DNA from: an uncultured Chloroflexia bacterium
GTDB lineage: Bacteria > Chloroflexota > Anaerolineae > JAAYZQ01
Length of the DNA stretch: 64,000 nt
NCBI GenBank assembly: GCA_963700285.1
Contig: CAVOXA010000010.1
Coordinates: forward strand, 128,001 to 192,000
Direction: 5' to 3'
Under the pieces are notes generated by a model. That model was given only the letters and a program-made list of their open reading frames with translations. It ran no database searches and was not told the origin of the DNA. Position numbers and translations under genes: made by a program. Position 1 is the first letter of the stretch, and each line of letters begins with the position of its first letter. Below, piece by piece: positions 34,322 through 54,336 of this stretch.

Positions 34322-34562
34322 TGAAACCACCCCGCACGACGCAAATTCCGGCCATGGGCTAGCTTGAAGGGAATCATTGACAGGCCGCTTTGGTATTATA
34401 ACGGAGAATGCGCGACGGGTCAATGAGCGGCCACCACCCACCACCTCGTCGGCCCCGGACGTTCGCTCAGCGTCTCATACATCAACGGTCCGGCGTCACT
34501 GAAACAGGCTGGGACCAGGACAATGGGCCCGCCTACTCTCGAGTGCCTTTGCGAACCCCTTC

Positions 34563-35591: not shown

Positions 35592-36430
35592 TCTGTCCCT
35601 CCCCGAATCTCTTGCAGTGCCTGTACAGCTTCTTCGTCACAGGGCGCTGCGCCATGCCACTTGGGCTGGTTCTCCATGAAGGATACGCCCTTGCCCTTGA
35701 CCGTATGGGCGATGATGGCTGTGGGGATACCCTTGATCGTCTTGGCCTTCTCCAGGGCCTCCACCACTTGGGACATATCGTGTCCGTCGATCTCGATCAC
35801 GTTCCAGCTAAATGCCCTCCACTTGTCTGGCAGGGGGTCTACGGGCATCACATCATCGACAAAAGTGTCATTCTGCAGCCCGTTCTTGTCGACGATAACG
35901 GTCAGATTATCCAGCTTCCACTTGGCGCCGGACATGGCGGCCTCCCAGATCGCCCCCTCCTGCGATTCACCGTCGCCAACCATGACCCAGACGTGGTAGC
36001 CCTTTTTACGCAGCTTGCCGCTCAGCGCCATGCCGATGCCGGCCGAAAAGCCCTGGCCCAGCGAGCCCACCGTCATGTCCACCCCCGGCGTCTTGCGCAT
36101 GTCGGCATGCCCCTGCAGAATGCTGTTCAGCTTGCGCAAGGTCTTGAGATGCGCCTTGTCATAGAAGCCCCGCTCGGCCAGCGCAGCATACCATACCGGG
36201 CAAGCGTGACCCTTGGACAGGATAAAGCGGTCCCGATCCGGCCAGTCCGGGTTCCCGGGATCGACGTTCATCAGCCGAAAATAAAGAGCAGTGACAATGT
36301 CCGCGGCCGACAGCGAGCCGCCCGGATGTCCGGCATTTGCCTCGTGGATCATGTTGATGATGTCACAGCGGATCGTGGCGGCCATCGTCTCTAGTTCTTC
36401 AACCGACATGGGAATCTGCTCATTGACCAT
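35588..36430 (-). CDS. Transketolase, N-terminal (TPP-binding) subunit
   Basis: GHPGGSLS, DRFILSKGH, GSLGQG, GDGE..EG..WEA, KGKG. Confidence 0.92.
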   Translation of the reverse strand: MVNEQIPMSVEELETMAATIRCDIINMIHEANAGHPGGSLSAADIVTALYFRLMNVDPGNPDWPDRDRFILSKGHACPVWYAALAERGFYDKAHLKTLRKLNSILQGHADMRKTPGVDMTVGSLGQGFSAGIGMALSGKLRKKGYHVWVMVGDGESQEGAIWEAAMSGAKWKLDNLTVIVDKNGLQNDTFVDDVMPVDPLPDKWRAFSWNVIEIDGHDMSQVVEALEKAKTIKGIPTAIIAHTVKGKGVSFMENQPKWHGAAPCDEEAVQALQEIRGGTE

Positions 36431-36597
36431 AAGCGCTCCTACCAAACCTCCGTTGTGGCTTGCAGGTTAGGAAAAGGAAAGGACGACACAGGTGATACGC
36501 ATATTGCCCGCAGGCGCAGATCTTTTTGCACAACCACATACGGATATAGCACAGGATAGGGAGACTGTCAAGGTCTCAATCGTGAGATCGTGTCCTG

Positions 36598-38910: not shown

Positions 38911-41235
38911 CTACAGGCCCAGCGCCCTATGGCACGCAGTCTCGCCTTTGCCCGGCTGCAAGTCATGGCCCAGCAAAACCCGCTCAAGCGTGAGAGGAAG
39001 CTGGTGATGGCGGATGCCGGTCGCGTGAAATACCGCGTTGGCCAGGGCTGGAGCCGTCCCAACAAGAACTGGCTCGGCCAAGTTCTTGGCTCCATATGGC
39101 CCCTCCGGAAAATTGGTCTCGATGAACGTTGCCTCGATCTCTGGCACGTCTAACGCCGTCGGGATCAGGTAGGTGTCATAGTTCAGTGACTGGGGATAGC
39201 CGTCTTGGTAGTTCATCTCCTCCAGCAAACCATAGCCCATTCCCTGGGCGATACCTCCGTACATCTGACCATAGGCACCCTGAGGATAGATAATCGTGCC
39301 GCCGTCGTGGGCTGCCCAGACTTTGGACACCGTAACCTGTCCGATAGGCAGATCAACTTCAACTTCGACCACATGCGCTCCAAAAGTATAGCAGTAGTAA
39401 GGGGTACCGGTGCCGGTCTCTTCATGCCACTCGATGTGAGGCATGCTCCATTTGCCCTGCACTGACAAGGTCAGCCCCATCTGACGCGCCCTGTCCACGA
39501 CTTGCTCAAAGGGCAGTTCATCTTCGTCAGGATTGACGTACAGCTCGCCATGGCGAGTCACTTGAGCTGGAGTACAATCGAGGGCATCAGCGGCGGCATA
39601 GCGCAACAGCCTGTCCAACTTTTCGGCTGCAACCCGAGCAGCGTTGCCGCCCAACATGGAAGCTCGCGAGGCAACTGTGGGTCCTGATTCGATGGCCGTA
39701 TCGGTGTCTGGCCTCAGAACGCGGATGCGAGCCGGTTCCACACCCAGAGTTTCGGCCGCGATCAAGGCAAAGACAGTACGACTACCTTGACCATAGTCGG
39801 TCAAGCCCGAGGTCAAGGTGACGCGGCAATCGTCCCCAATTCGCAGCGTTGTGTTGGCATAATCTGCACCTTCACCGCCCAAACTGCTGCCATGCATGTA
39901 GCAAGCGACTCCAATGCCCTTTCGCACCTCGCCTCTCAACAATGGAAACTCCCTGCGCTTGCGTTTCCAGTCAGACTTGTCCCGCACCCACTCGAGGCAT
40001 TCGGCCAGCTTGACCTCATGGTCGACGACGTTGCCCGACATAAAGCGGTCGCCTTGCCGGACACAGTTTTGCAGTCGAAAATCAATGGGATCGCGGTCCA
40101 ATCTGTGGGCCAGGTCATCCATAGCCTGTTCCACCGCGGCGGCGGCATCTGTGTTGCCAAACCCACGAAAAGCGCCACAGAAGCCGTTGTTGGTATAGAC
40201 CGTGGTTGTATCGACGTGAACCGCCTGGTACCGGTAAGCACCAGCGGCATGCAAAGATGCCCTGAGCATGGCCAATGTTGTCATAGAGCTGTAGCAGCCA
40301 CTGTCGGCCAGCATGTCGACTTTTGCTGCCTGCAAGTTGCCATCTTGATCGGCGCCGATGCGAAACTGGATCGACATCGGCTCGCGCTTGTACGAGGCCA
40401 TCATCGATTCCTCTCGACCCAGCACCAGCCTGACCGGTCGCCCTGACTTGAGAGCCAGCGCCGCTACCTGCCCCGATGTTTGGTAGCCAACATCATCCTT
40501 CCCGCCAAAAGAGCCGCCAACCTGGGGCGTGATGATGCGCACTTTTTCAGAAGGCAGTCCCAACACAGTGCACATATGCGTGTGGTTGATAAAGGGGCTC
40601 TGCCCATTATACCGTATGGTGACACTGCCATCAGGATGGGGAATGGCCAACGCTGCCTCAGGTTCCAGGTATGCGTGCTCTTGACGGCCGGTACGGAAAG
40701 TTTCTTCGTACAGCACAGGGCTTTGCTCCAGTATGGGTTCCGGATCCCCATAGCGGACGATATGCTTCGCGCAAAAGTTGCCCTGTTCAGAAACAGGAAC
40801 GAGCGGGACCTGGGGCGCGTCCGGTGCCAGGGCCTGTTCCGGATCAAAGACGCCGGGCAGCTCTTCCAGCTCCAACTCGATGGCATCGACCCCGGCCCGG
40901 GCCGCGGCCGCCGTCTCCGCGGCGACTGCGGCAATCGCATTGCCCACATAGAGCACCTTCTGGTAGGCCAGTACATACTGGTCCTTGATGGGCCAGCCCC
41001 ACAGACTGTGCTCCACAAAGTCGTCCGAGGTAATGACAGCTACCACGCCTGGCACTTGCAGGGCTGGTTCGACATCCAAACGCACGATTTTGGCATGAGG
41101 CACCGGGCTGCGCAGCACCTTTGTATGGAGCATGTCGGGCAGCTGAATATCACCCACATACCGGATTGTGCCCATCATCTTTTCCAGACCATCGACACCA
41201 TCAGCGGGCCGGCCTACGTACTTGAGCGTCGTCAT
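38911..41235 (-). CDS. Xanthine dehydrogenase-family molybdenum-binding subunit
   Basis: RSPVPHA, EHAYLEPE, VGGSFGGK, GAFRGFG, GQG, ASR, GAKNLAE. Confidence 0.92.
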   Translation of the reverse strand: MTTLKYVGRPADGVDGLEKMMGTIRYVGDIQLPDMLHTKVLRSPVPHAKIVRLDVEPALQVPGVVAVITSDDFVEHSLWGWPIKDQYVLAYQKVLYVGNAIAAVAAETAAAARAGVDAIELELEELPGVFDPEQALAPDAPQVPLVPVSEQGNFCAKHIVRYGDPEPILEQSPVLYEETFRTGRQEHAYLEPEAALAIPHPDGSVTIRYNGQSPFINHTHMCTVLGLPSEKVRIITPQVGGSFGGKDDVGYQTSGQVAALALKSGRPVRLVLGREESMMASYKREPMSIQFRIGADQDGNLQAAKVDMLADSGCYSSMTTLAMLRASLHAAGAYRYQAVHVDTTTVYTNNGFCGAFRGFGNTDAAAAVEQAMDDLAHRLDRDPIDFRLQNCVRQGDRFMSGNVVDHEVKLAECLEWVRDKSDWKRKRREFPLLRGEVRKGIGVACYMHGSSLGGEGADYANTTLRIGDDCRVTLTSGLTDYGQGSRTVFALIAAETLGVEPARIRVLRPDTDTAIESGPTVASRASMLGGNAARVAAEKLDRLLRYAAADALDCTPAQVTRHGELYVNPDEDELPFEQVVDRARQMGLTLSVQGKWSMPHIEWHEETGTGTPYYCYTFGAHVVEVEVDLPIGQVTVSKVWAAHDGGTIIYPQGAYGQMYGGIAQGMGYGLLEEMNYQDGYPQSLNYDTYLIPTALDVPEIEATFIETNFPEGPYGAKNLAEPVLVGTAPALANAVFHATGIRHHQLPLTLERVLLGHDLQPGKGETACHRALGL

Positions 41236-41717
41236 ACTTCCCTCCTGCCACCGGCCCGCCGCCGGGCTGCGGTTGTCTCCACGGCGTCGACAATCTGTTG
41301 ATAGCCAGTGCACCGGCACAGGGTGCCAGAAATCCCATCCCGTATCTCCTCACGGGTGGGATGCTTGTTCTGCGCCAAAAACGCCTCGGCGGCCATAATC
41401 ATGCCCGGCGTACAATAGCCGCACTGCACAGCACCGAATTCCTGAAAGGCCAGTTGTAGGTCATTCGGTCCACCATCGGCGCCACGAATCCCCTCGATGG
41501 TCGTCACGGCTCGGTCGCCGACCTGGGGCGCCAGAAGCTGGCACGAGTTTACGACTTGGCCGTCCAGTAGCACCGCGCAGGCACCACATTCGCCCACCTC
41601 ACAGCCTGGTTTGGGGCCGGTCAGGCCCAAGTATTCTCTCAGGAGTTGAAGCAAGCTGATACTGGCTGGCGCCTCCACTTCCACCGGGTTGCCGTTCAAC
41701 GTGAAACTTATCTTCAT
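41232..41717 (-). CDS. XDH-family 2Fe-2S subunit
   Basis: GCEVGECGAC, QCGYCTPG, CRCTGY. Confidence 0.93.
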   Translation of the reverse strand: MKISFTLNGNPVEVEAPASISLLQLLREYLGLTGPKPGCEVGECGACAVLLDGQVVNSCQLLAPQVGDRAVTTIEGIRGADGGPNDLQLAFQEFGAVQCGYCTPGMIMAAEAFLAQNKHPTREEIRDGISGTLCRCTGYQQIVDAVETTAARRRAGGRREV

Positions 41718-42568
41718 GCTTGCAGTACCTCATTCAATGCGCGCACGGTGAGCGCCGCGATGGCCCGTTCCTTGTATGGCGCCGACCAGCGCCCTCCTGA
41801 TTCTGCCATGAATAGCTCAGCCATGCGCTGCCCCGCCGCCTGTATCCGTTGTGCGGAAGGTCGTTGGCCCCAGAGCATCTCTTCGACGGCGGTTGCTCGC
41901 TGGAACCGGGCAAAGGCTGCTCCGGGCACCAGCCGAATCAGGACAACCTGGTTTTTGTTATCCAGCATGCCCATGGCCGCTACCGAAAGCCGGGCGATCG
42001 ACATTGCCCGGCGGCGGCCGATGCGCTGAAAGGCCGATCGGCTCCCTGCCGGCGCTACATCGAAAACGAACGCTTCGACCAAGCTGTCGCTGGAAAGCCC
42101 AGTTCGGTTCACACCGGTGACTAGATCGGCCACGGGAACCAGGTTCTCACCTGAACCGCTGACCACGACAGCACTGGCGCCCATGCAGACCAACGCTGGC
42201 AGCGTGTCGGCGCAGGCCGCTGCATTGACGACGTTTCCGCCTACGGTGGCAATGTTGCGGATCTGGGGGCTGCCGATTTGGCGACAAGCCTGGACCAGGA
42301 GAGGCGCCCTTTCCTGCAATCCTGGGTGGGCTGCGACCTCGGCGTGGGTTACCGCTGCGCCGATACGCACCTCGCCATCAACTTGGATGGCCCGAAGCTC
42401 CGGAACGTGTCCCACGTCCACCACTCTGTCACAGGAGCTCTCGCCGCTACGGAATTGGTTGACCAAGTCGGTGCCTCCAGCCAGAATGCGGCTTCTCAGG
42501 CCGGGCTCGCCGAGATAATCCACGGCCTCACGCAGGCTATGCGCACGTACGTACTCGAAATCTCCCAT
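41714..42568 (-). CDS. XDH-family FAD-binding subunit
   Basis: LAGGTDL, IGSPQIRNIATVGGN. Confidence 0.92.
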   Translation of the reverse strand: MGDFEYVRAHSLREAVDYLGEPGLRSRILAGGTDLVNQFRSGESSCDRVVDVGHVPELRAIQVDGEVRIGAAVTHAEVAAHPGLQERAPLLVQACRQIGSPQIRNIATVGGNVVNAAACADTLPALVCMGASAVVVSGSGENLVPVADLVTGVNRTGLSSDSLVEAFVFDVAPAGSRSAFQRIGRRRAMSIARLSVAAMGMLDNKNQVVLIRLVPGAAFARFQRATAVEEMLWGQRPSAQRIQAAGQRMAELFMAESGGRWSAPYKERAIAALTVRALNEVLQA

Positions 42569-42630
42569 ACTTTGATCTCCCTATTAACCGGAAGGCTGCA
42601 CAAGTGGCGGCTCACGGTCGATGAATAACA

Positions 42631-42658
42631 CCTCAGACTGGTTGCCTCCAGTCTGAGG
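42631..42658. terminator. Intergenic hairpin between the AKR and XDH genes
   Basis: CCTCAGACTGG-TTGCCT-CCAGTCTGAGG. Confidence 0.5.
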
Positions 42659-42737
42659 CCAAACAGGGTCAGCGCGAGATCGGTGACTCCAAGCCCGCAA
42701 CTACAATACCCAGTTTAGGTGGATTTGTCTCCCACTG

Positions 42738-43712
42738 CTACTCCCAACAGTTATGAGGCCAGGCGTGACCGGCAAGTCGCTCAACGACCTCAGGCGGCAA
42801 ACTGCCCTTGTCTGATGCCTGGGTATTGGCCTTGACGTGCTCGATCCGCCGCATCCCAGCAAGAACTGACGATACAGCCGGATCGCTCAAGCAGAAGCGT
42901 AGTGCCCCTTCGGCCAGTGTTTCAACGTCGTCACCGACCAGCCAGTCGAGTGCCTCGGCATGCTCAATTGCCTGCGCCAGTCGATCGCCGCCAAAGTAGT
43001 TGTTCCGCCAGTCATCCTCGGGAAAGGTCGTATCCAGGGTGAGTTTGCCCGTTAACGCACCCTCGTCCAGCGGGCAGCGGACAACAATGCCAACATCATG
43101 CTTCTGAGCCAGAGGGAAGAGCAGATCCTGGGGCTCTTGCTGGTAGATATTGTAGACGACCTGGCACACGTCGATCAGGCCAGTCTCGATGGCCTTTTGC
43201 GGGATATGGGAGTCCTCCAAGGGAAAGACCAGTGAAAGGCCAAAGCTGCGGACTTTGCCTTGTTCTTGCAACTGAACGGCGGCCTCTTTCCATTCGTCAC
43301 AATCGGCCCACTCGTCCATCCATACATGGAGCATCTGTACATCCAATTGCTCCCGGCCCAGGTTCTTGAGGCTTTGCTCGCTGTTTTCGATAATCCACGC
43401 TTTGGTGTATGCATCGGCAAAAGAATCGCCTGACTTGGGTCCGAAATTGTAGTTCATCGGGCGGACCTTGGTTGCCACGTATACCTCTTCAGGCCGACCC
43501 TTTAGTACCTGCCCAATCAACCGTTCGCTGTGACCATTGCCATAACCCATCGCCGTGTCGATGAAATTCACGCCCAAATCCAGGGCCAGATTCATTGAGT
43601 TGAGGGCGTCCTCGTCGGTGCTGCCTTTCCACCAATCGAGGCCAATGCCCCATGCTCCGTAGCCGATCTCGGAGACCTCAAATCCTGCTTTACCTAGCTT
43701 GCGATAGCGCAT
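42738..43712 (-). CDS. Aldo/keto reductase
   Basis: VSEIGYG, FIDTAMGYG, ATK, SLKNL...D...LH. Confidence 0.9.
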   Translation of the reverse strand: MRYRKLGKAGFEVSEIGYGAWGIGLDWWKGSTDEDALNSMNLALDLGVNFIDTAMGYGNGHSERLIGQVLKGRPEEVYVATKVRPMNYNFGPKSGDSFADAYTKAWIIENSEQSLKNLGREQLDVQMLHVWMDEWADCDEWKEAAVQLQEQGKVRSFGLSLVFPLEDSHIPQKAIETGLIDVCQVVYNIYQQEPQDLLFPLAQKHDVGIVVRCPLDEGALTGKLTLDTTFPEDDWRNNYFGGDRLAQAIEHAEALDWLVGDDVETLAEGALRFCLSDPAVSSVLAGMRRIEHVKANTQASDKGSLPPEVVERLAGHAWPHNCWE

Positions 43713-43762: not shown

Positions 43763-44629
43763 CTAGCTTAGCAGCTCGTGCAGGTGGTAGGAGTGTTTGC
43801 CAAAGGACCCACCAAAGTTCATGGCTCCGATCTGTACGACGCCTGGGACCTGAGCAGCTGCATTGATTGCTACTTTCATGGCACGCTGCATCAGGACTGG
43901 CGTGGAACCGAACATCAACAGGTTGAGGATCGACTCAACCCCATCGGGGACTTGGCTGTCTTCGATCCTGTCCCGCAGCGCGGGCACATAGTCCAGCTCG
44001 CGAAAGACCTGCTCCAAACCATAGCCCATGGGCGCTACCCCGTCCACGGCAGCGATGGCATCCTTGGCAGCCTTGACCGCCAGTACAGAAGACGCCTCAG
44101 ATTTGGCAAAGCACACGATATGCCCATCTGTGCCACGGGTCGAAAGGTGGACCGACTTTTCATAGGTGAATTCGCCGGTCATCGTCGGGACGACGCTCAG
44201 ACGGCGCTCACCCAGATCTCGTTCCGTGTCATAGCCTTGCCACCGCTCCGAGGTGAGGGCATACAGGTCCACTTTCTCGGTCGCCTCCGCATCCTCTACC
44301 ATGAAATCATAGATGGCCAGGGTCGGTATGAGGGTGCCCAGTACAATGCGCAGAGAAAGCTCCTCGCTAAAGGCCTGCCGGGCCTCGGGCGTCATCGTAC
44401 AGGAAACAATCACCCCCGGCCGGCCGTCGGGTGTTTCCGCGGGATGCGCCATCCGCTCTATTCCGGCATTGATCCGTGATCCCAGTTCACTCGAACCAGC
44501 GGCACCGACGAACTGGTGCGCGCCGCCCAAGGCCACGTCTTCAGAGATTGCCGTCAGGACGAGCCGGACCACTTCCAAGTCCCACGCCTCCGCAAAAGTG
44601 TCCTGAATGAGAACGTCGTTAATCTTCAT
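43763..44629 (-). CDS. Divergent formylmethanofuran:tetrahydromethanopterin formyltransferase (Ftr)-family protein
   Basis: INDVLIQDTFAEAW, AGIER...ETPDGRPGV and C-terminal PGVVQIGAMNFGG..GKHSYHLHELL match recalled Ftr signatures. Confidence 0.8.
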   Translation of the reverse strand: MKINDVLIQDTFAEAWDLEVVRLVLTAISEDVALGGAHQFVGAAGSSELGSRINAGIERMAHPAETPDGRPGVIVSCTMTPEARQAFSEELSLRIVLGTLIPTLAIYDFMVEDAEATEKVDLYALTSERWQGYDTERDLGERRLSVVPTMTGEFTYEKSVHLSTRGTDGHIVCFAKSEASSVLAVKAAKDAIAAVDGVAPMGYGLEQVFRELDYVPALRDRIEDSQVPDGVESILNLLMFGSTPVLMQRAMKVAINAAAQVPGVVQIGAMNFGGSFGKHSYHLHELLS

Positions 44630-44653: not shown

Positions 44654-45709
44654 CTACAGATCTTCATTGACCACCATGACTTTGAGCCCTATTCTCTCGT
44701 TGGCAAAGCCAAAAGCCTTTTGAATATCATCCAATGAGTAGTGGTGGGAGATAATGGTATCCAGCCGGACATTGCCCGATTGCATCAGCGCCACCGCCTT
44801 TTCATAGTCGGCACGAGTTGAATCATGCGTACCAACAAACCGAAGCTCCTTATAGTGAATCACATCCAGATTCAAGGTGACGGGGTCGCTGAGTGTTGCT
44901 GCAAAATACAGGACCTGGCCCTGCTTGGCCGACATTTGGAACGCCTCTTCCAGCACGGTAGGATCGAGACCCGCCGCACTCACCACGACGTCAGCACCAA
45001 ACCCCCCGGTAATCTCTTTCACTTTGTCTATCAGGTCCGTGTCTACCTCATGCGGTTTGTCTGCGTGAAGAATGTGGTTTGCCCCAAGGTCTCCGGCAAC
45101 ACTGAGCCTCTTTGGTTTCAAGTCGATGGCAATGACCTGCATGCCGCGGCTCTTTAGGAGCTGCACGTGGATGAGACCAATAGGACCGGAGCCAATGACA
45201 ACACCAAAGCCGCCCATAGGAATATCGATTAGCTTGTTGTTGCCATTGATGCAGCAAGCCAACGGTTCTGCAAAGGCCGCCTCGATGATGTCCACGTTAT
45301 CGGGCACCGGAACCAAGTTCTTGTAAGGATAGACTGCGTATTGCCCAAAGCCGCCGGCAATATAGCCGGCATCCACGCACAGGTTCTCGTGCCCGCGGCG
45401 GCAGTAACGGCAATAGCCACAGGGCAACCTGCCATCAGGCACCACCCTGGCTCCAACACCCAAACTGGGTTTGTCAGGCACCTCGTCCCCAATTGCATGG
45501 ATGGTCCCCGAAAGCTCGTGTCCCATCTGAAAAGGGAACTTGATCTTCCAGCCCGAGGGCTTTCTACCATTGTAGAGATTGAGATCCGTTCCGCAAATGC
45601 CACAGGCAGCAACCTTGACCACCACCTCATCGCTTCCTGGCTGAGGAATCTCGCTTTCCTTGAACACAAACTGGCCGTTCTCCTGAATCAACGCGTTTTT
45701 CGTCTTCAT
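44654..45709 (-). CDS. Zn-dependent polyol/alcohol dehydrogenase (MDR family)
   Basis: CGICGTD, GHE, CGYCRYCRRGHENLC, EPLAC, GSGPIG. Confidence 0.9.
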   Translation of the reverse strand: MKTKNALIQENGQFVFKESEIPQPGSDEVVVKVAACGICGTDLNLYNGRKPSGWKIKFPFQMGHELSGTIHAIGDEVPDKPSLGVGARVVPDGRLPCGYCRYCRRGHENLCVDAGYIAGGFGQYAVYPYKNLVPVPDNVDIIEAAFAEPLACCINGNNKLIDIPMGGFGVVIGSGPIGLIHVQLLKSRGMQVIAIDLKPKRLSVAGDLGANHILHADKPHEVDTDLIDKVKEITGGFGADVVVSAAGLDPTVLEEAFQMSAKQGQVLYFAATLSDPVTLNLDVIHYKELRFVGTHDSTRADYEKAVALMQSGNVRLDTIISHHYSLDDIQKAFGFANERIGLKVMVVNEDL

Positions 45710-45748: not shown

Positions 45749-47149
45749 TCACGACAAAGAATAGTAGGGTGATACTTCCAACCCAGCGTCGGCAAACCGT
45801 TTGATTGCGTACGCCTCAGCCTCTGAAACAATCTCTTCCTCATCAAAGCGAAGCAGCTTGCGTTCGTGCACGAGCACCTGGCCGTCAACGATCACGGTCT
45901 CTACGTCGCTGGATGCACTGGCACAGTAGACAAGGTTGTTCACAATGTTGTTGATCGGCCGCATGTGGGTAGCGGTCAGATCCACCAGTATGACGTCGGC
46001 CTTTTTTCCAGTCTCCAACGAGCCGATCTCGTTCTCCATTCCCAGGGCCCGAGCCCCGCCCATGGTAGCCATTTCCAACACCTGATAGGCACTGAGAGCA
46101 GCAGCGTCCATTACGCTTACCTTTTGCAGGAAAGCCGCCGTGCGCATTGCCTCGAACATGTCCATGTTGTCGTTGACAGCACAGCTATCGGTTCCCAAAG
46201 AGACCACCACGCCGGCATCCAACATCTTGGTGATAGGCGCTACCCCGTCAGCGACCTTCATGTTGCATTCAGGATTGTGGGCCACCGATGTGCCCGTGTC
46301 CTTCAACAACTGGATATCATCATCTGACAGCCAGATGCAGTGAGCGCCCAATACGTCCGGTCCCAGCAGCCCGATATCGAACAGGTAGCGAGTCGGAGTT
46401 GTTCCACAGAGGTTGTGGATGTTTTCCCACTCAAATTTGGTCTCGGCGACATGGATGTGAATGCCTACCTCATTCTGAGTGGCCAGGGCGCGTACCTTTT
46501 GCATCAACTCGCCGCCACAGGAATTGGGGCAGGCCAATCCGTAGCGAAAGGTAACCAGGCCATCCTTCTGGTGCTGGCAGTGCTGGATCAACTGGTCCGC
46601 AAGGTCCAGGGCGATATGTTCGGGGAGCAGCATGCCTTCTTTGCTCCATTGATCCACATCGGTCAAGGTCAGCGTTTGTACCACACGCAAGCCCATTTCC
46701 TCAAAGACATCGATCGTCTCTGGAGGTGTAGCCCACTCCATGTTCAGCAGACAGGTGATACCTGACCGCAGCGCGTCAACACAGCCCAGCCGAGAGGACT
46801 GGATCTGCAAACCAAAGTCACCGGCGAGATAGCCCTGGACAGCCATCACGATGCGCGGACTCGACACATTCTCAATCCAGTCTACCAGCTCGAGATCGTC
46901 CGGCGTTCCCTTTAGAAAATTCTGTAGAAAGTGGTGGTGCGTATCGATGAGCCCAGGTAGAACAGCGCGATGGTGAGCATCGATGACTTGGCCGGCAGAG
47001 TACTGGGCAACCAAGGTCTCTGTCGCGCCGATGTCCACGATCCTGCCATTCTTGATGGCCACCGCGCCATCGTAGAGAATGGTACGGTCCCTATCCATGG
47101 TAATGACCACGCCGTCGCGGATGAGCAGGTCGACCTTCATTGGGTTCAT
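45749..47149 (-). CDS. Metal-dependent amidohydrolase (MtaD/AtzA-like deaminase family)
   Basis: PGLIDTHHH, HIHVAE, AHC, HNPECNMK, LGTD, GSLETGKKAD. Confidence 0.88.
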   Translation of the reverse strand: MNPMKVDLLIRDGVVITMDRDRTILYDGAVAIKNGRIVDIGATETLVAQYSAGQVIDAHHRAVLPGLIDTHHHFLQNFLKGTPDDLELVDWIENVSSPRIVMAVQGYLAGDFGLQIQSSRLGCVDALRSGITCLLNMEWATPPETIDVFEEMGLRVVQTLTLTDVDQWSKEGMLLPEHIALDLADQLIQHCQHQKDGLVTFRYGLACPNSCGGELMQKVRALATQNEVGIHIHVAETKFEWENIHNLCGTTPTRYLFDIGLLGPDVLGAHCIWLSDDDIQLLKDTGTSVAHNPECNMKVADGVAPITKMLDAGVVVSLGTDSCAVNDNMDMFEAMRTAAFLQKVSVMDAAALSAYQVLEMATMGGARALGMENEIGSLETGKKADVILVDLTATHMRPINNIVNNLVYCASASSDVETVIVDGQVLVHERKLLRFDEEEIVSEAEAYAIKRFADAGLEVSPYYSLS

Positions 47150-47160: not shown

Positions 47161-48312
47161 TCAGTCGAGCGCCTCGTTAACGATCTGGGACAGAGACTTG
47201 GCCTTGATTTTCATACGTTTCGAGCGGCTCATTTGGCGGAATCGAACGTAACAATTTGGGCACGAGGTGATAATCTGTTTGGCCCCAGTCTCGATGGCCT
47301 GCTCCAACCGGTCGACAACGGCCTCATTGGCCAGACCCTGGCAGGTAAAGTACACGCCGCCACCGGCTCCACAACATTGGGCGTGATTACGGTTGGCAGG
47401 CATCTCGACCAAGTCAAGCCCTGGGATTGCATTGAGCAGATCTCGTGGCTCGTCGTACATGTCGAGGTGGCGACCCAGCACGCAGGGATCGTGCCAGGTG
47501 ACCAGTTCGGGCATCTCCGACAGCCTGCCCTCCACCAGGGGTCGCAGAAACTCGCTGATGTGCTGCACGTCGAACCCTGTCTCCAAGTCCATTTCGTCCG
47601 GCAGCAGGAATTTGAAGCTCTTGAAGCAAGCCGGGCAGGTTGTCAACAAAACCTCCGGGCTCTGGACCTGAATACGTTCCAACGTGATGGCGGCGACCTC
47701 TTTGGCGGCGTCGATCTGCCCCAGTTCGTACAATGGAAAGCCGCAGCAGGTGTCATCCTCAAACATGGCAAAGTCCAGGCCGAGCTTTTCCAGAATTTCA
47801 ACCACCGCTACGACGGTCTCTTCTGACATGCGGTTTGTGGTACACCCGGGGTAAAAGAGCACCGATACCTTTTCTTTCTTGGCTTTTGGGGCAGAGTCCT
47901 CATCGTCCCACTTGGGACCATATGGGTTCAGATGCTGCTTGGTCAGAGACACCACTCGCTTGTGGGCTGGCAGCGCGTGTCCCTTTTCGGCCAGGTCTAC
48001 CCGCCAAGCGTGGAATATCTCATTCAAGGGCAATCCAACAGGGCAGTGTGCTTCACAGCTTCCGCACAAGGTGCAAGCATAGGCATGGTCGAGGAAGGAT
48101 TCCGTAATCTCGATCTCGTCCTCGAGGGTCGCACGCGCCATTCGAACCCGCCCCCTGGCAAACTGCGTCTCCCAGCCGGGTGAGAAGGGATAGGTGGGGC
48201 AAACGTGCTCCACGCCCTCCCAGCCCCACACGCGACAGAAACCGCACCGTGAACAATCGTACAGATGACGCTTTTGCTCCTCCAACATGAACTCGCTCCT
48301 ACTAGAGACCAA
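47161..48312 (-). CDS. Fe-S oxidoreductase with two CCG domains (GlcF/HdrD-like)
   Basis: CSRCGFC, CTLCGSCEAHCP, CCG twice, HDPCVLGR. Confidence 0.88.
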   Translation of the reverse strand: MVSSRSEFMLEEQKRHLYDCSRCGFCRVWGWEGVEHVCPTYPFSPGWETQFARGRVRMARATLEDEIEITESFLDHAYACTLCGSCEAHCPVGLPLNEIFHAWRVDLAEKGHALPAHKRVVSLTKQHLNPYGPKWDDEDSAPKAKKEKVSVLFYPGCTTNRMSEETVVAVVEILEKLGLDFAMFEDDTCCGFPLYELGQIDAAKEVAAITLERIQVQSPEVLLTTCPACFKSFKFLLPDEMDLETGFDVQHISEFLRPLVEGRLSEMPELVTWHDPCVLGRHLDMYDEPRDLLNAIPGLDLVEMPANRNHAQCCGAGGGVYFTCQGLANEAVVDRLEQAIETGAKQIITSCPNCYVRFRQMSRSKRMKIKAKSLSQIVNEALD

Positions 48313-49642
48313 CGACGTCTGGGTTCATAATATGATTGGGGTCAACCATCTGCTTGATCGCCTTAAGCAACCGCCAATAGCCAGTTGCGCCCAGATGTTT
48401 CTGCAAATGAGGTCCCCACTGCCGCCCCTTGGAATAGGGCGCTCCGCCCATCTCCAAGCCCTTGTCCATCATCTCCTCCATTGCACCCTGGATCTTCACA
48501 TATTCTTCTTTGTCGTCGGGGTGATGGAACATCAAGCTCACGTGCTCTGCTCCTGTGGGCTCGGGGAACATCTGCTGGGCATACAACCGGATGCCGCGCC
48601 GGTCCATGATCTCTCGCATCACAAGAGTCGCCTCTGCCAGCTGGCCAAATGGTAGGAAATAGTTCACCGCGCCGGCAATGCCGTCTTTGAATTCTTCGCC
48701 CGTGTTGAACCATCGATAGTCCCAGAATTTCTGAGGTGCTTCCGGGCCTTCGTAGCGAACGCTTGAATAGGCAGACACCAACTTTCGAATTCTCTTCACA
48801 CGGTGTACTACCTCTGGCTCATCCCCTTCAACGTTGACGTCAAAGAAAAACATTTCGGGCTTGATCACCGGAACCGATATGTAGCAGACCAGGTTGTGAT
48901 GGGCGATCTCACGAAAGATGTTGATGCCATCGCCCAAGTCTGTTCCAACATAGCGCTCCAAATAGATCTTTTCGGGCCAGGGGTAAATTCGCAAGGTGAT
49001 CTCGGTGACGATGCCCATGGCCCCCTCTGCCCCGATGAACAGCCCCGCCAGATCGGGACCCAACGCATAACGGAAGAAACTGCTGGCTGCCGGGTTTGCC
49101 GCTGTCCCAGTTTCGACAACCTCGCCCGTGGGTAGAACAGCCTTGAGCCCGAGTACCTGCTGGCCCTGGGTCACATACTTGACATTCCCCCAGCCAACAC
49201 CGGGGCGCGAAATGTGAGCGCCTACAGTACCGGCCATGGCACCCGATGGCGCAATGCCAATCTTCCAGCCTCGCTCCTCGAGTATGGTCATTAGCCGTAC
49301 AAAGGTGACTCCGCATTCGACCGTAACGGTTCCGGCATCGTCGTTGATGTCCAGTATCTTGTCCAGCCGCAGCGTCTCCAGGATGATGCCACCCTCCGAC
49401 TGGCAGCCACCCTCCTGGGCAGATCCCCCACCCCGGGGCGAAACCGGAACGTTAAACTCGTTGGCCAATCTCAGGATTGCGGCGATTTCAACCAAGGTTC
49501 CCGGTTTGACCACGATGGCGGGCCACCGAGGCGCCTCAGCTCCGAAATCCTGGGTATACGACAGGAGGATGAAAGGCTCGTCTGACACATATTCTGGGCC
49601 CACAATCTCGGCCAGCCTGGCTATGATCTGTTTCTTGTCCAT
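48302..49642 (-). CDS. FAD-linked oxidase (GlcD / D-lactate dehydrogenase family)
   Basis: PRGGGS, GLFIGAEGAMGIVTE, K..VDPNHIMNP; the usual C-terminal HG..H motif is not evident. Confidence 0.85.
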   Translation of the reverse strand: MDKKQIIARLAEIVGPEYVSDEPFILLSYTQDFGAEAPRWPAIVVKPGTLVEIAAILRLANEFNVPVSPRGGGSAQEGGCQSEGGIILETLRLDKILDINDDAGTVTVECGVTFVRLMTILEERGWKIGIAPSGAMAGTVGAHISRPGVGWGNVKYVTQGQQVLGLKAVLPTGEVVETGTAANPAASSFFRYALGPDLAGLFIGAEGAMGIVTEITLRIYPWPEKIYLERYVGTDLGDGINIFREIAHHNLVCYISVPVIKPEMFFFDVNVEGDEPEVVHRVKRIRKLVSAYSSVRYEGPEAPQKFWDYRWFNTGEEFKDGIAGAVNYFLPFGQLAEATLVMREIMDRRGIRLYAQQMFPEPTGAEHVSLMFHHPDDKEEYVKIQGAMEEMMDKGLEMGGAPYSKGRQWGPHLQKHLGATGYWRLLKAIKQMVDPNHIMNPDVVGL

Positions 49643-49751
49643 ACTCCATCCTATCGCGATCCTCGAGTTTTCCTGACAGGACCCACTCTCTGCCGGAAAA
49701 GCAGCCCGGCCCATTGCCTGTCAAGCCTTGCGGCCATCGTCATGCGTAGGG

Positions 49752-50507
49752 CTACTGATCTCCGAACAGAACTTGGTGTATCTGGCGCACCGTCAATTCT
49801 GGATCCTCGGACTGCCAGACCCGGCGCCCAATAGCTACGCCTGCCGCTCCAGCTTCCACAATCTCGCGCACCATCTGCAGAGGGTCTTCAGCGCCTCTCT
49901 CATTCTTGGGGCCGCCAGCGACCACAATTGGTACAGGCGACGATCGAACAACGTGCTTGAAGGTCTCGATCTCGCCGCAATAGTTGGTCTTGACAATGTC
50001 CGCGCCCATTTCGTAGCCTATGCGCGCTGCGTGTGCCACCTGGGTAGGATCATAGGCAGCATCCATGGACGGCATCATTTCTGCAAGCACAGGGATTCCG
50101 TAGCGGTTCGATTGCTCGGTAAGCTGTCCCAGAAACCGCATGGTCTCAACCTCGTGACCTCGTCCAAAAAAGATCGAAACGGCGACTGCATCCGCATCGA
50201 GCCGGAGGGCCGTCTCCACCGTAGCCACGGGAGTCTCTTGCATGGCTTCTGGGGCCAGCCCAAGACTGATACTGACTCTGAGCACGATGGCGACCTCTGT
50301 TCCCATGATGGGCTGTACGGTACGGGTAATCCCCGGGCTCACCAGTAGAGCATTTGCGCCACCGGCCAACACCTGCTCGACGATGCCCTGGGGGCAGTCT
50401 ATCCCCTTGACAGGACCCAACCATGGGCCGTGATCTAGGGGGACCATCAAACAGCGCCCAAAAGGCCCTGTGAATATCCTTCTCAGTCTTCTACTCTTTC
50501 CTGTCAT
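49752..50507 (-). CDS. Class I aldolase (DhnA/LsrF/ADH synthase family)
   Basis: PLDHG, GADIVKTNY Schiff-base Lys, AGG, GRRVWQ. Confidence 0.88.
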   Translation of the reverse strand: MTGKSRRLRRIFTGPFGRCLMVPLDHGPWLGPVKGIDCPQGIVEQVLAGGANALLVSPGITRTVQPIMGTEVAIVLRVSISLGLAPEAMQETPVATVETALRLDADAVAVSIFFGRGHEVETMRFLGQLTEQSNRYGIPVLAEMMPSMDAAYDPTQVAHAARIGYEMGADIVKTNYCGEIETFKHVVRSSPVPIVVAGGPKNERGAEDPLQMVREIVEAGAAGVAIGRRVWQSEDPELTVRQIHQVLFGDQ

Positions 50508-50564
50508 GTTTACTCCTCCATAGTCAGCATCATTGACCAACGCCACAAGCTCAGATCTGCGTCT

Positions 50565-52058
50565 TCAGGACACCATGTCGGTTTCCTCCAAGGCGAATTG
50601 TGCGAATGCCCTGTAATGCTGATATCCGCCTTCATAGACAGGGCCGAACTCGCTGCGGCAGTGGATTATAGCAGGTTCATCGAATGTCTGCAACAGGCTC
50701 ACTTCCAGTCTCTCGCGCCCCAGGTGCGCTTGGCACAGAGCATACAGCACTCGCGTTACGGTTTCTTTGCCGGCATAGATCAGGACATCGCGTTGGCAGA
50801 CATCGGCCACAATCTGGGGCCAACCCTGGGTGGCCGAGCCACCACCGGCAAGAGCAATTTGGTCGATTGGTACACCCAGTTCCTGGTAGAGATCCAGGAG
50901 GTGGCGTAGGCTGTAGGCCACGCCCTCCATGACGGCTCGCCCCAGGTGGCGCTGGTCGTGCGCTAACCGCAACCCGTAGAACCCGCCCCGTATCTCATCG
51001 CTCCAATAAGGGCTGCGTTCACCGGCCAGATAGGGAATGAAACATACTCCATCCGCGCCAGGCTCGATCTCAAGGGCATCCGCTACCCACTCTTCAAACG
51101 ACTTGGACTGTTCTTTGCCTCTGGCAAGGTTTTCGTAGGCCCAGACCAGGCAGCTGCCAGAGCTAGACGACACGCCGCCAAGCATCGGATATGGTCCGAA
51201 GGGATATATGTACAGCCTTTGGGCTGGATCCCGGACCTGATCCTGTTCAGCCAGCGGTGCGAAAACCATGGAAGAACTGCCCATCGAGCAGGTCACGCGC
51301 CCCGGTCTGGGTGGCGCTGCCCCAAATAAGGCGGCAACATCCCCCATACCTACCACAACCCGGATGGCCGGGCTCAGCCCCAACATCTCGGCTACCGCAG
51401 GCAGGATTGATCCGCCGCCGGCATCTGAGGCGCGAATTGGCGGCAGCACGCCGGGGTCCAGGCCTACGATCTGGAGCCGCTCAGCCGCCCACGCTCTCGT
51501 CTCCCAGTCCAATAGTACCGCCCCACCAGGCTCTGTCAAGTCTGTGCACAGCTCGCCCGTCATCCGGAAGCGGAGGTAGTCCTTAGGCCATAGGATCGTC
51601 CGCGTCTTGGCCAGCACCTCAGGCATGTGGCGACGGAGCCACAACAGCTTGGGAAGTGTATAGGTACTGTTGAGTTGAAAAGGCGGCAACTGGAGCGTGG
51701 CCATCAGCTCCTCCGTCTCGCTGGCTGCCCGCCGGTCTAGCCAGAGGATGGTCGGAGGGAGTACCTTTGCCTGGTCGTCCAGCAGCACGGCCGTATGCAT
51801 TTGACCTGTGAAGGACACAGCCTCAGTCTGGTCCAGCGCAAAACCCTGCCCGGTCAGGTCTGCCAGGGCATCTCGCAGAGCCTGCCACCAGTCCTCGGGA
51901 TCCTGCTCAGCCCAGCCCGGATTCGGCGTTTGATAGGAGTACCGTTGAGAGCTAGTCCCCTTGACTCGGCCATCAGGCGAATAGAGCACAGCCTTCAGCG
52001 AAGAGGTACCCACATCAATCGCCAGGATTGTATTCTCGGGCTTTTCGGTTCGTGCCAT
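50565..52058 (-). CDS. FGGY carbohydrate kinase (xylulokinase-like)
   Basis: DVGTSSLK, EQDP, GQMH, LWLDRR, PYLAGERSP, MEGV. Confidence 0.9.
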   Translation of the reverse strand: MARTEKPENTILAIDVGTSSLKAVLYSPDGRVKGTSSQRYSYQTPNPGWAEQDPEDWWQALRDALADLTGQGFALDQTEAVSFTGQMHTAVLLDDQAKVLPPTILWLDRRAASETEELMATLQLPPFQLNSTYTLPKLLWLRRHMPEVLAKTRTILWPKDYLRFRMTGELCTDLTEPGGAVLLDWETRAWAAERLQIVGLDPGVLPPIRASDAGGGSILPAVAEMLGLSPAIRVVVGMGDVAALFGAAPPRPGRVTCSMGSSSMVFAPLAEQDQVRDPAQRLYIYPFGPYPMLGGVSSSSGSCLVWAYENLARGKEQSKSFEEWVADALEIEPGADGVCFIPYLAGERSPYWSDEIRGGFYGLRLAHDQRHLGRAVMEGVAYSLRHLLDLYQELGVPIDQIALAGGGSATQGWPQIVADVCQRDVLIYAGKETVTRVLYALCQAHLGRERLEVSLLQTFDEPAIIHCRSEFGPVYEGGYQHYRAFAQFALEETDMVS

Positions 52059-52083
52059 GGCGCACATCCAGTCAATGCAGTTT

Positions 52084-53532
52084 CTAAAGCAAGTCTTGTT
52101 TCTGGTAGTATGAGCGCGCGTCGGCCAGAATGCGTTCAATGTCGTCTTCTTGAGCTGACGTCAGAGGCTCTGGCTCATAGGTAGACAGAATCTCATCCAA
52201 TCGTTCTTGAGCATAATCGAGGGCTGTCTTTTTTCCCTGGGCAACCCAGTCCGGATAGGTCAAGCGGTCTGCGGCTTTGGGCATGAATTGACCAAGCTTC
52301 CACCAGGCTCGCGTGTGAGCCGTGTTGAGAAAGTGTCCGGGTATGGGTCCAACCTCGTTGATGACATCCACCGCTATGGTCTCGTCGGTGATAGTCTCGC
52401 CAGAGATGAGGTGGCCAATCATGCCAGCGATATCGTCATCCAGGATGGCCTGGATGGGATGAGCCGATATCTCGGCCGAAACGGAAAAATGGAGCAACAG
52501 GTGGTTCGCGCCCGACAGGGCAGAGATCAACCCGGCCAGGGCCTTCTCGTAACCAGCCTGGTAGTCAATGGTCTTGGCGGCCACATAGGAGGGCGAACCG
52601 TTGCCACAGGGCACGCCATAGTGGCGCCACATCTGGTTAAAGATAGCGTTGCTGATCGAGCCACCTATGCCCCCAAATGCGGGCGAACCTGTCGCCATGT
52701 TCATCGGTACGGAGAAATGGCCGACCAGCATCCGTTGGCCGGGGTTGAGCAGTTGAGCAATGACCACCATAGCCAGGTGCTCGGCGTTGCTGACCACTAT
52801 CGAGCCCGGAACTGTCGCCGGGCCAGTTCCGCCCATGATGCAGCCATCAACGGTCACGACGGGAAAACCTGCTTCGATCATACGCCGCGCGGTTGTGACG
52901 GCGTCTCCATCCCAGGAAAGAGGGGCAGACGAAGTTACGACTCCCGAAATCTCCACACCCAGGGCTTGGGCCATCTGGATATTGAACACCTCACTGCCTT
53001 TGGAGTAGCAAGTTGTCTGGTGTTTGGTCGAATGTCGCATCTTGAGGGCCACGCCTTCGGGTATGGCCATCACAGGCGAAACGTCCTCAAATCCGAAATA
53101 AGGATAGCAGCCCAAGCAACTCACGCCGGGCAGGAAATCAAGGACCTTGATGGCGTCTGCATACTCTGCCCGTGTAGGTGGTCTCGGTTCAAAGGTATCC
53201 AGCTCGATGGTGTGCATGCCCGAGCCGTGACTAAAATGCAACGCGTTGCCGCCGAACTCAAGATTGTGCCGTTCGTCCCTTGCTTTTGCCGAGAAGGTAC
53301 TGGGCACTTTGTCCAGGCACTCCTCGACCAGTCCGGCTGGAAACCGGACCCGCATCTCGTCCCGGGCAGCAGGGCAGCCATGGCCTTCCAGAAAACTCAG
53401 TGCCCATTCACTCTCGATACGCACACCAGTTTCCCCGAGGACCCTCAATGTGGCAGAATGAATCTCGGCCACCTCCTCCTCAGTGAGTAACTCCAGGGGG
53501 CGGATGTCGAGACAATATCCCGGTTTGTGCAT
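52084..53532 (-). CDS. MttB-superfamily corrinoid methyltransferase, non-pyrrolysine, copy 1
   Basis: IHSATLRVL...G, GGTGPATVPG, AAKTIDYQAGYEK, VGPIPGHFL; intact ORF with no amber codon. Confidence 0.88.
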   Translation of the reverse strand: MHKPGYCLDIRPLELLTEEEVAEIHSATLRVLGETGVRIESEWALSFLEGHGCPAARDEMRVRFPAGLVEECLDKVPSTFSAKARDERHNLEFGGNALHFSHGSGMHTIELDTFEPRPPTRAEYADAIKVLDFLPGVSCLGCYPYFGFEDVSPVMAIPEGVALKMRHSTKHQTTCYSKGSEVFNIQMAQALGVEISGVVTSSAPLSWDGDAVTTARRMIEAGFPVVTVDGCIMGGTGPATVPGSIVVSNAEHLAMVVIAQLLNPGQRMLVGHFSVPMNMATGSPAFGGIGGSISNAIFNQMWRHYGVPCGNGSPSYVAAKTIDYQAGYEKALAGLISALSGANHLLLHFSVSAEISAHPIQAILDDDIAGMIGHLISGETITDETIAVDVINEVGPIPGHFLNTAHTRAWWKLGQFMPKAADRLTYPDWVAQGKKTALDYAQERLDEILSTYEPEPLTSAQEDDIERILADARSYYQKQDLL

Positions 53533-53559: not shown

Positions 53560-54186
53560 CTAGCCAGCCCTGACGGCCCCTGGCGCAGTGGCGTCATAGC
53601 CGTCGGCGCCGATCAGATCAGCGAACTCTTGGGTGACGCCGCCGCCGCCGACCATTACCCTGACTTGGTCCCGGAGACCAGACTCCTGCATCTGCTCGAT
53701 CACCCGTCTCTGCTCCGACATTGTGGTGGTCATCAGGGCAGACATGGCCAGAATGTCCGCATCATATTCTTCGATGGCCGCCATGAACTCGTCCCCGGTT
53801 ACATTGATGCCCAGATCATGCACGCGAAAGCCCTCCGCGGTCAGCAGGGTTGAGACCATGGCCTTGCCAATATTGTGCAAATCGCCAAAGACGGTGCCGA
53901 TGACCACAGTACCAAGGCTTACCCGCTCAGCTCCCTGCCTGGTGATCTCGGACTCGATGATGGGCGTTGCCGCCAACATGGCCTCTGAAGAGCCAACCAG
54001 ATCCGGCAGCCACAGTTCGCCTTTGCCAAACCCGTTGCCAACCTCGCGGATGGCCTCGGTGAGGATATCCAAGGCTTGAAGAGGATCAATTCCCTCGTCG
54101 ACTGCTCTTTGAGCCCAATCTGCGGCCCCTGCAGCGTCATATTCCAACACTGCCTGCTTCAGACCTCCAAGTATTACGTTCGACAT
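53560..54186 (-). CDS. Corrinoid (B12-binding) protein, copy 1 (3' end may be frameshifted)
   Basis: LWLPDL, GDLHNIGK (DxHxxG), SALMTTT, VGGG. Confidence 0.9.
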   Translation of the reverse strand: MSNVILGGLKQAVLEYDAAGAADWAQRAVDEGIDPLQALDILTEAIREVGNGFGKGELWLPDLVGSSEAMLAATPIIESEITRQGAERVSLGTVVIGTVFGDLHNIGKAMVSTLLTAEGFRVHDLGINVTGDEFMAAIEEYDADILAMSALMTTTMSEQRRVIEQMQESGLRDQVRVMVGGGGVTQEFADLIGADGYDATAPGAVRAG

Positions 54187-54336
54187 GATCTGCTCCTCAC
54201 CCACCTCAAACTGAACATAGCCACCACCCACTTGCGGTTCCCCTTCCGATTGCCGCCTTGAACGATCAGCTCGTACCAGTAAAAGAGAACCACAAGCAGA
54301 TGGCAGTTGCCTCAACTCATTGGACTATCGACCATC

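Follow-up and report, generated by a model that had tools for sequence, protein, structure and literature searches.

The question raised by this locus is what a relative of Ftr, the methanofuran:methanopterin formyltransferase, does in a bacterial catabolic operon that holds no gene of methanopterin-linked one-carbon (C1) metabolism. The gene lies at 43763-44629 on the reverse strand of a 64,000-nucleotide stretch from an uncultured Chloroflexia bacterium (assembly GCA_963700285.1, contig CAVOXA010000010.1), and this whole stretch is called the window below. It starts with ATG, contains zero internal stops and encodes a protein of 288 amino acids (P0001). Our comparisons indicate that this protein is almost certainly not a methanofuran:methanopterin formyltransferase. 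From its sequence and that of its neighbours, we tentatively propose, at somewhat less than an even chance, that it may be a hydrolytic N-deformylase in a predicted anaerobic catabolic pathway. The chances that it removes formyl groups in one way or another seem to us evenly balanced.

The preliminary description of this DNA had recognised the gene by its Ftr signatures, and we found DTFAEA at residues 10-15 and ETPDGRPG at residues 65-72. The C-terminal signature, given there as NFGG..G...HL, is also present, as NFGGSFGKHSYHL, except that four residues instead of three separate G and HL. The profile search recommended at that time placed the protein in the Ftr family, with 86.7 bits for Pfam FTR (PF01913, cut-off 27) and 72.2 bits for FTR_C (PF02741, cut-off 25). 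In a word-indexed search, 1810 proteins were returned, and at least 120 of them were full-length relatives at 64-89% identity. In a library clustered at 50%, two full-length representatives scored 518 and 460 bits and the next best match only 240; this steep drop shows that the relatives form one compact clade. The protein scored below the NCBIfam cut-offs, with 178.5 against 297 for PRK02114 (NF002554) and 158 against 292.6 for TIGR03119. Three clade relatives reached 171-176 and 142-144 with the same two models, and four canonical copies reached 412-462 and 391-454. Furthermore, the protein aligned over its full length with four solved Ftr/FhcD sequences, including 1FTR. An AlphaFold2 model built from a 40-row alignment (mean pLDDT 91.9) has the two-lobe Ftr fold along the whole chain, with a TM score of 0.87 to 1FTR. 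The best four Foldseek matches of this model were Ftr/FhcD structures (E 5.6e-30 to 8.5e-25, TMq 0.84-0.88), and a search of the ESM Atlas with the protein returned Ftr clusters only.

Could the divergence be an error of sequencing or the decay of a pseudogene? Over codons 9-100, codon positions 1 and 2 were 83-89% alike between the gene and four relatives and position 3 was 32-41% alike, which is the pattern expected of a gene under purifying selection. In addition, short-read contigs from two DNA runs matched parts of the gene without differences, and these parts included the unusual segment SSELGSRINAG. We rejected both explanations on the basis of this pattern, the matching reads and the full-length proteins of the family. 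Two 151-nt contigs of a sediment metatranscriptome also matched the gene exactly, but DNA carry-over is possible and they were not counted as expression.

The active site was compared between P0001 plus 120 listed relatives (n = 121) and 20 canonical bacterial Ftr/FhcD proteins, 16 from genome loci and four annotated as fhcD on plasmids. Position 236 (window 43922-43924) is Asn in all 121 clade proteins and Glu in all 20 canonical ones. It aligns with Glu245 of Methanopyrus kandleri Ftr and Glu252 of FhcD, which PMC6926001 names as the residue stabilising the tetrahedral oxyanion. Five further differences are fixed in 121/121 against 20/20: H170 for N, D168 for G, W16 for F, W130 for G and M270 for G, so that canonical G166/N168 has become D168/H170. 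Together with E206 and E90, which are invariant across the clade, the clade-invariant set is W16, N54, E90, W130, D168, H170, E206, N236 and M270. On the reverse strand, the codons of D168, H170 and E206 are at 44126-44128, 44120-44122 and 44012-44014, respectively. Meanwhile, SSELGSRINAG occupies residues 46-56 (window 44462-44494) and stands opposite TSVIMCPAEAG of 1FTR in the alignment, exactly as had been noticed at first sight for the segment there given as TSVIxCxxEAG. What that first sight had missed are the decisive changes, namely Glu245 to Asn236, the loss of the SGSK loop and the new D168, H170 and E206.

The substrate contacts of Ftr have changed as well. Fig. S8C of PMC6926001 gives 19 substrate-contact positions, and by that figure Q95, T99, L124, F126, F127, N168 and E245 are replaced in the clade. 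The loop F200-S209 could not be aligned: the canonical PFPGGIVASGSK corresponds to a shorter, serine-free PMGYGLEQVFRE, and SGSK is lost. Thus, all six of the invariant-type polar contacts of that set (Q95, T99, N168, S207, S209 and E245) are replaced, and I56, M57/G, M98, F279 and perhaps L219 (numbering of the same figure) are kept or changed conservatively. The equivalent of Ser54 of canonical Ftr is retained. As the published contact set is largely replaced, pterin binding cannot be read from the residues. In the AlphaFold2 model, D168, H170, N236 and M270 are located on strands of the C-terminal lobe, and the order of these strands (coordinates were not used) would let all four face one cleft. 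As far as the alignment tells, the clade has gained a candidate catalytic residue set of its own while keeping the Ftr fold.

Is the cofactor system of Ftr available in the host? The host genome (7.05 Mb, 89.26% complete, 6.53% contaminated) has the Ftr-like gene as its sole FTR match. Profile searches of this 89% complete genome for Mch, MptG and MfnB gave zero matches, although the same models matched in archaeal controls. No FwdA/FhcA was found above the cut-off, only 22 weak partial matches (best 43.9 bits). When 12 probes from the methanopterin/methanofuran cluster of Ca. Formimonas warabiya DCMF were used in tblastn, only the Ftr-like gene and generic RimK-type ligases were recovered, and probes for a Mtd-like protein, three Mch, FhcA and FhcC gave zero matches. 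Thus, the early remark that no fwd/fhc, mch or mtd genes are nearby holds at the locus and in the genome, and the wider check for methanopterin genes (Mch, Mtd, FhcABC, MptG and MfnB/D/F) also yielded zero matches over cut-off, although the absence is not proven at 89.26% completeness. The genome does encode Fhs and folate methyltransferase homologues.

The clade is found in Anaerolineae and other Chloroflexota, Clostridia, Ca. Formimonas warabiya DCMF, Spirochaetota and one Thermotogae. With the centre genomes included, members were present in 6/301 genomes of the host's own class, 2/401 of its own phylum, 6/401 in the phylum of DCMF, and 1/184 and 1/301 in the phyla of two further centre genomes (G002 and G003). 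None of Mch, MptG and FhcA was detected in 17 of 25 host genomes, and Mch alone in three. Four hosts of 95-98% completeness have no Mch, and a fifth has two Mch copies yet no canonical ftr. The gene had been called an orphan, and this is true of the locus and the genome; it is not true of the family, which has at least 121 proteins and includes five of 25 hosts with a methanopterin module elsewhere in the genome. Each of these five also has a separate canonical ftr. Among them, DCMF carries an intact operon in a complete genome plus a canonical copy. The clade does not need the methanopterin module, though their co-occurrence exceeds the class average.

Some other arrangements of these genes were seen in the host genomes. 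The DCMF genome (G001:C1:862000-880000, locus L034) has a full fhcBADC-mch cluster with mptG, mfnB, mfnD and an mfnF-like gene, and a second, isolated mch. In L099 (8095-15899), a Mch homologue stands beside a Bmp-type ABC importer, cytidine deaminase and UbiD. In L100 (727-14444), it stands beside 2-oxoacid dehydrogenase E1/E2, lipoate ligase, a RibD-like reductase and an amidohydrolase, together with an ECF importer, a molybdenum hydroxylase and AOR. MptG and FhcA are absent from the genomes of both L099 and L100, and both also carry the Ftr-like operon.

The setting had been described as a catabolic operon, and our results bear this out: one operon is kept over 30 loci from several phyla. 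The counts below come from tblastn with orthologue probes over these 30 loci, several of which are short or at contig edges and some of which are close kin; 31 were examined, and L116 was dropped since its copy is of canonical type, broken, and part of an fhc/mch cluster. Mch, Mtd, FhcA and FhcC were found in 0/30 loci by tblastn, and the same probes matched the control L116. In the window, the run is on the reverse strand. Directly upstream of the Ftr-like gene is a Zn-dependent alcohol/polyol dehydrogenase (44654-45709; 28/30 loci), followed by an amidohydrolase with a guanine-deaminase-type Gln after strand 1 (45749-47149; 26/30), a GlcF-like Fe-S/CCG subunit (47161-48312; 21/30), a GlcD-like FAD oxidoreductase (48302-49714; 19/30), a DhnA-type class I aldolase (49752-50546; 23/30) and an FGGY kinase (50565-52139; 25/30). 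Then come an MttB-family methyltransferase with no in-frame stop (52084-53532; 17/30), a corrinoid protein (53560-54315), an MtmB-like methyltransferase in pieces (54337-55724; 11/30), and a second corrinoid protein with a second MttB-family gene (55812-57953), each split by frame changes. An aldo-keto reductase (42738-43712; 26/30) is directly downstream of the Ftr-like gene, with a 12-bp hairpin (42630-42659) after it and then a three-subunit molybdenum hydroxylase of the xanthine/aldehyde dehydrogenase family (38911-42568, reverse strand; FAD subunit in 5/30). The run is preceded by a sigma-70-like promoter match (58020-58048, reverse strand; TTGACA-17-TG-TATGAT, 11/12), which is a consensus match only. 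A GntR-UTRA regulator and a carbohydrate-type ABC importer, whose binding protein is related to those of other clade loci, diverge from the run on the forward strand (58580-64000).

Most orthologues were 42-76% identical to the proteins of the window. Other recurrent families were the GntR-UTRA regulator (15 loci), a second Zn-dehydrogenase (11), a URO-D-like methyltransferase (8), folate methyltransferase (7) and tungsten AOR (7), and the seven loci with AOR are all other than the five with the molybdenum hydroxylase FAD subunit. MttB and the URO-D-like gene were mutually exclusive by locus, and at least one of the three methyltransferase-type families (MttB, MtmB-like, URO-D-like) was present in 26/30 loci. 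Furthermore, three loci lacking GlcD/F carry a DAP_DH-family (amine dehydrogenase-like) gene instead, and three loci have a hydantoinase gene. The importers differ by locus and are of sugar-type ABC, Bmp-type ABC, or ECF type with an unnamed S-component. This S-component (L031 11047-11661, 204 aa; also in L095-L098 and L023) is 65-78% identical among these loci and matches no Pfam family above threshold. The ESM Atlas gave unnamed clusters for it, with a weak QueT lead at 0.89 that was not used; knowledge of the ligand of this S-component would probably identify the substrate of the pathway.

What could this substrate be? In the aligned operon orthologues, the amidohydrolase has invariant H71, H73, Q76, H233, E236, H270 and D321. 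PMC12828455 describes a Gln after strand 1 as unique to guanine-deaminase-cluster enzymes, which act on guanine-type 6-pi rings and require such a conjugated ring, and the amidohydrolase has the combination used there, namely this Gln with HxH, HxxE, His and Asp. N2,N2-dimethylguanine hydrolases have the same Q/E/H/D set and can release alkylamines, according to PMC13054789. The known cluster members (GuaD, NdmH, AtzB and 8-oxoguanine deaminase) share the Gln and the Glu/His/Asp set with our amidohydrolase, whereas it scored only 164 bits as guanine deaminase (cut-off 375) and 262 bits as 8-oxoguanine deaminase (cut-off 532). The closest solved relatives of the kinase and the aldolase are xylulokinase and MJ0400, respectively; the reductase is closest to IolS and the dehydrogenase to polyol dehydrogenases. 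Judged from these relatives, the four enzymes suggest that a sugar or polyol is dismantled without a nucleoside phosphorylase. Because the amidohydrolase signature, the sugar enzymes and the methyltransferases occur together, the substrate would be a guanine-type ring that is methylated and linked to a sugar.

Several other compounds were ranked lower. Riboflavin or lumazine would fit the kinase, aldolase and AOR, but has no N-methyl or 2-amino group. For methylthioadenosine, the amidohydrolase has the Gln and not the Met-type motif. Apiose-type branched sugars and N-methyl aminoalditols leave the guanine-type amidohydrolase unexplained, and for methanopterin there is no Mch, phosphoesterase or N-methyl.

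N7-methylated purines are cationic amidiniums, and in water their ring opens without an enzyme to give an N-methylformamide. Ring-opened 7-methylguanosine was chosen as the example since it is the one compound known to us that unites the ring type, the methyl, the sugar and the formyl group; as the exact substrate it is a long shot. In the proposed pathway, the numbering of whose steps need not be their true order, the substrate would first be taken up by a sugar- or nucleoside-type ABC importer or an ECF importer. Second, the N-methyl group would be removed by MttB, or by the URO-D-family methyltransferase where MttB was not seen, and passed onto the corrinoid and then to folate. Third, the amidohydrolase would deaminate the 2-amino-4-oxo-pyrimidine ring. 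Fourth, the Ftr-like protein would hydrolyse the N5-formamide left by opening of the imidazole ring, with His170/Asp168 or Glu206 activating the water, and the formate released could be reused via Fhs. The loss of an N-formyl group after ring opening had already been suggested in the preliminary description, and it is our leading reading, too. Fifth, the reductase, Zn-dehydrogenase, kinase and aldolase would convert the N-linked sugar to a ketose phosphate, which would then be cleaved. Sixth, the resulting aldehyde would be oxidised by AOR or the molybdenum hydroxylase, and a leftover C-N or C-O bond may be oxidised by GlcD/F or the amine dehydrogenase.

In the phylogenetic analysis, the best trees tentatively set the clade apart from canonical Ftr. 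The trees were unrooted, did not contain labelled Ftr2 or EhaS sequences, and carry SH-aLRT or FastTree values as supports; fragments, duplicates of one locus and three rows with frameshifted ends were left out. The clade was separated from the bacterial canonical rows (SH-aLRT 100) and stayed monophyletic when the representatives of the 50% library were included (SH-aLRT 100). In the best tree, it joined six paralogues that share D-G at positions 168-169 (SH-aLRT 98.5), of which P0124 and P0123 were closer. A metagenome scan with P0123 found six loci at 32-38% identity, with one fragment at 52%, and recovered no close gene context for that relative. Viral contigs searched with canonical Ftr and phages searched with P0133 gave zero matches. 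The 50% library also contains several more divergent Ftr lineages, some of them without the Glu, and genome G519 has two Ftr homologues close together, one of which is strongly divergent and near mch (L104 6225-7169, reverse strand).

The D-G paralogues lead to a sister operon. Weaker matches were obtained in 23 further genomes of the G002 phylum, and the copies examined were 58-60% identical to P0133 and 30-32% identical to P0001. Mch stands directly downstream of the D-G paralogue in 11/11 genomes inspected, and MptG was absent from 5/5 genomes tested with the Ftr paralogue and Mch operon. The reaction of Mch converts a cyclic amidinium to an N-formyl group and back. Since Mch is fixed beside the paralogue and MptG was not found in these five genomes, it is plausible that the paralogue lineage deals with formyl groups that arise when a non-methanopterin ring is opened. 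In L128 (543-17805), an example of an operon widespread in that phylum, the gene order is LacI, DhnA aldolase, phosphoesterase, binding protein, Zn-dehydrogenase, permeases, Ftr paralogue, Mch, amidohydrolase with HTHLYQ, GlcD, GlcF, ADP-ribosylglycohydrolase and PfkB kinase. This operon thus shares with that of the clade the aldolase, the Zn-dehydrogenase, the Gln-type amidohydrolase, GlcD/F and an ABC importer, and its Ftr paralogue shares the D168-G motif and the grouping in the best tree. However, the L128 paralogue retains the Glu and a KVGG loop, the operon has the adjacent Mch, the PfkB kinase and the ADP-ribosylglycohydrolase, and in the four paralogue stretches compared there was no MttB, FGGY or AKR match to the window proteins. 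The absence of Mch and the presence of a methyltransferase in the clade fit the opening of a cationic N-methyl imidazolium without an enzyme. As the N7-methyl ring opens spontaneously, this would explain the swap of Mch for a demethylase between the two operons. No description of the paralogue operon was found in the published literature searched.

Several results weigh against N-deformylation in such a pathway. First, the pterin- and formamide-binding residues of Ftr are mostly replaced, so that a retained formyl chemistry is argued from ancestry and context and not from the active site; moreover, the D-G paralogues keep the Glu that the clade has lost. Second, the operon is not uniform, as 4/30 loci have no methyltransferase (three of these four being short or cut off by contig edges) and two, L015 and L016, have no amidohydrolase. 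Third, the amidohydrolase scored below every curated cut-off and about equally well against methylthioadenosine/S-adenosylhomocysteine (MTA/SAH) deaminases. Fourth, 7-methylguanosine is a substrate of nucleoside phosphorylase, and for this reason only its ring-opened form would need this route. Fifth, Mch, MptG and FhcA occur together in 5/25 host genomes, a higher frequency than the 17/301 genomes of the class sample with a canonical-type ftr, though the two samples cover different taxa and are not independent. Finally, the divergence asserted in the preliminary description agrees with the best tree, in which the clade lies outside the canonical-motif rows, but grouping with them is still permitted: a tree forcing the clade beside 18 such rows was 16.6 log units worse and was not rejected (p-AU 0.185), and a rougher first run favoured this grouping.

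A different role on the sugar side is unlikely but has to be taken seriously. The rebuilt His/Asp/Glu site could perform a non-formyl step, for example an Amadori-type isomerisation acting on an N-glycosylamine, or a retro-Claisen cleavage of what the Zn-dehydrogenase produces. This would agree with the Zn-dehydrogenase being the most constant neighbour, with the Ftr-like gene remaining beside the kinase, reductase and aldolase genes even where the amidohydrolase is missing (two loci), with no sugar isomerase family being found among the annotated operon neighbours, and with the replacement of the known Ftr substrate contacts. Against such a step, formyl transfer is the sole measured chemistry of the Ftr fold in the sources consulted, and the related paralogue group is fixed beside Mch. 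An isomerase is also dispensable where an aldo-keto reductase and a Zn-dehydrogenase replace it, as in the xylose reductase/xylitol dehydrogenase route.

We regard it as improbable that the protein is a transferase with another carrier, one that passes a formyl or formimino group from an intermediate with an opened ring to tetrahydrofolate. The ancestral reaction type would be retained, and folate methyltransferase genes (7/30 loci) and Fhs in the host genome are available. However, the oxyanion Glu is lost, FolD, cyclodeaminase and 5-formyl-folate ligase were not found among the annotated operon neighbours, and two pterin-like partners would have to fit a site that originally took a pterin together with a furfurylamine. 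There is only a slim chance that the protein is a non-catalytic ligand-binding or scaffold subunit, a role presumed for EhaS, the Ftr-like 'second Ftr' of Methanothermobacter. The loss of the catalytic Glu is in its favour, and PMC3087415 provides the precedent of an Ftr-like subunit co-transcribed with an unrelated complex; the new acid/base residues invariant in 121/121 proteins are more typical of a catalytic site, and 64-89% identity is maintained among the listed family members. An ordinary Ftr using made or scavenged methanofuran and methanopterin, as the Ftr label given to many relatives by automated sources and the module in five of the 25 hosts would have it, has a negligible chance, given the scores under the curated cut-offs, the missing Glu245 and SGSK loop, the 17/25 hosts without Mch, MptG and FhcA (with four hosts 95-98% complete for Mch), the separate canonical ftr in all five module-bearing genomes and the 0/30 loci with a C1-module gene.

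How does the candidate deformylase differ from known systems? Canonical Ftr (EC 2.3.1.101; 1FTR, 2FHJ, 2FHK, 1M5S and 1M5H) shares with it the two-lobe fold along the entire chain (TMq 0.87-0.88, 31-33% identity), the DTFAEA, ETPDGRPG and GN(F/Y)GG-type motifs and the Ser54 equivalent. In contrast, the clade has Asn for Glu245, DGH for GGN, replacements at Q95, T99, F126 and F127, and an operon without methanopterin or methanofuran genes. FhcD of the formyltransferase/hydrolase complex (6S6Y) shares the fold (TMq 0.84, 25% identity) and an amidohydrolase encoded nearby, but FhcA, B and C were not found in the host genome and the Glu252 equivalent is lost; FhcA is a binuclear amidohydrolase, whereas the neighbour of our gene is of the mononuclear guanine-deaminase type. 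The archaeal Ftr2 paralogues and EhaS are likewise divergent Ftr paralogues that coexist with canonical Ftr, described in print without a tested function (bioRxiv 2021.09.25.461819; PMC3087415). Their hosts are methane-cycling archaea and Archaeoglobales and the clade is bacterial and in a catabolic context, so the two are set apart by hosts and context alone. To the extent of the literature searched, which covers few subscription journals, no description of the clade or its operon was found.

The presence of Ftr is taken to indicate methanopterin-linked C1 metabolism. Of the 23 genomes of the class sample that matched FTR, 6 did so through members of this clade only, and thus automated Ftr labels on its proteins mislead. 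If the proposal is true, the Ftr fold would gain its first new reaction, a conserved branch of the MttB family, most of which is unassigned, would obtain a substrate class, and it would become clear how sediment anaerobes recycle modified nucleobase-sugar compounds. In its widest form, anaerobes of at least three to four phyla would share a route for the salvage of ring-opened N-methylguanine nucleosides, for example the formamidopyrimidine that arises from 7-methylguanosine in RNA. The Ftr fold would serve there as a His/Asp/Glu N-deformylase, MttB or URO-D would pass the methyl to folate, and Mch of the sister operon would open the unmethylated ring; this is a speculative scheme to which we attach little probability. 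DCMF, with an intact operon and a canonical copy in one complete genome, makes a side-by-side comparison practical.

Finally, some minor features of these loci were recorded. The MtmB-like gene is interrupted by an in-frame TAG, and its frame also changes close to the beginning. A pyrrolysine reading of this TAG is not supported, as the intact relative in L019 has Tyr at this position and PylS was not found in the host genome, and the TAG looks like an error or a nonsense change. Within 55812-57953 (reverse strand) and 59580-64000 (forward strand), the second corrinoid protein, the second MttB, and the binding protein, permease and ATPase of the importer are each split over two frames; the number and closeness of these breaks suggest indel errors of the assembly. 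The loci L015 and L016 (2298-14512), in which the amidohydrolase is missing, encode a GH4 glycosidase, a PfkB kinase, a URO-D-like protein and, by a weak Pfam match, a polysaccharide-deacetylase-like protein. A transketolase split into N- and C-terminal genes, not seen in other clade loci, is located at 34563-36445 (reverse strand), with two opposite-strand genes between it and the operon. A 1318-aa open reading frame (30488-34444, reverse strand) has what we take, by eye, to be a transcriptional-activator/ATPase/TPR region and a peptide-binding-protein-like domain.

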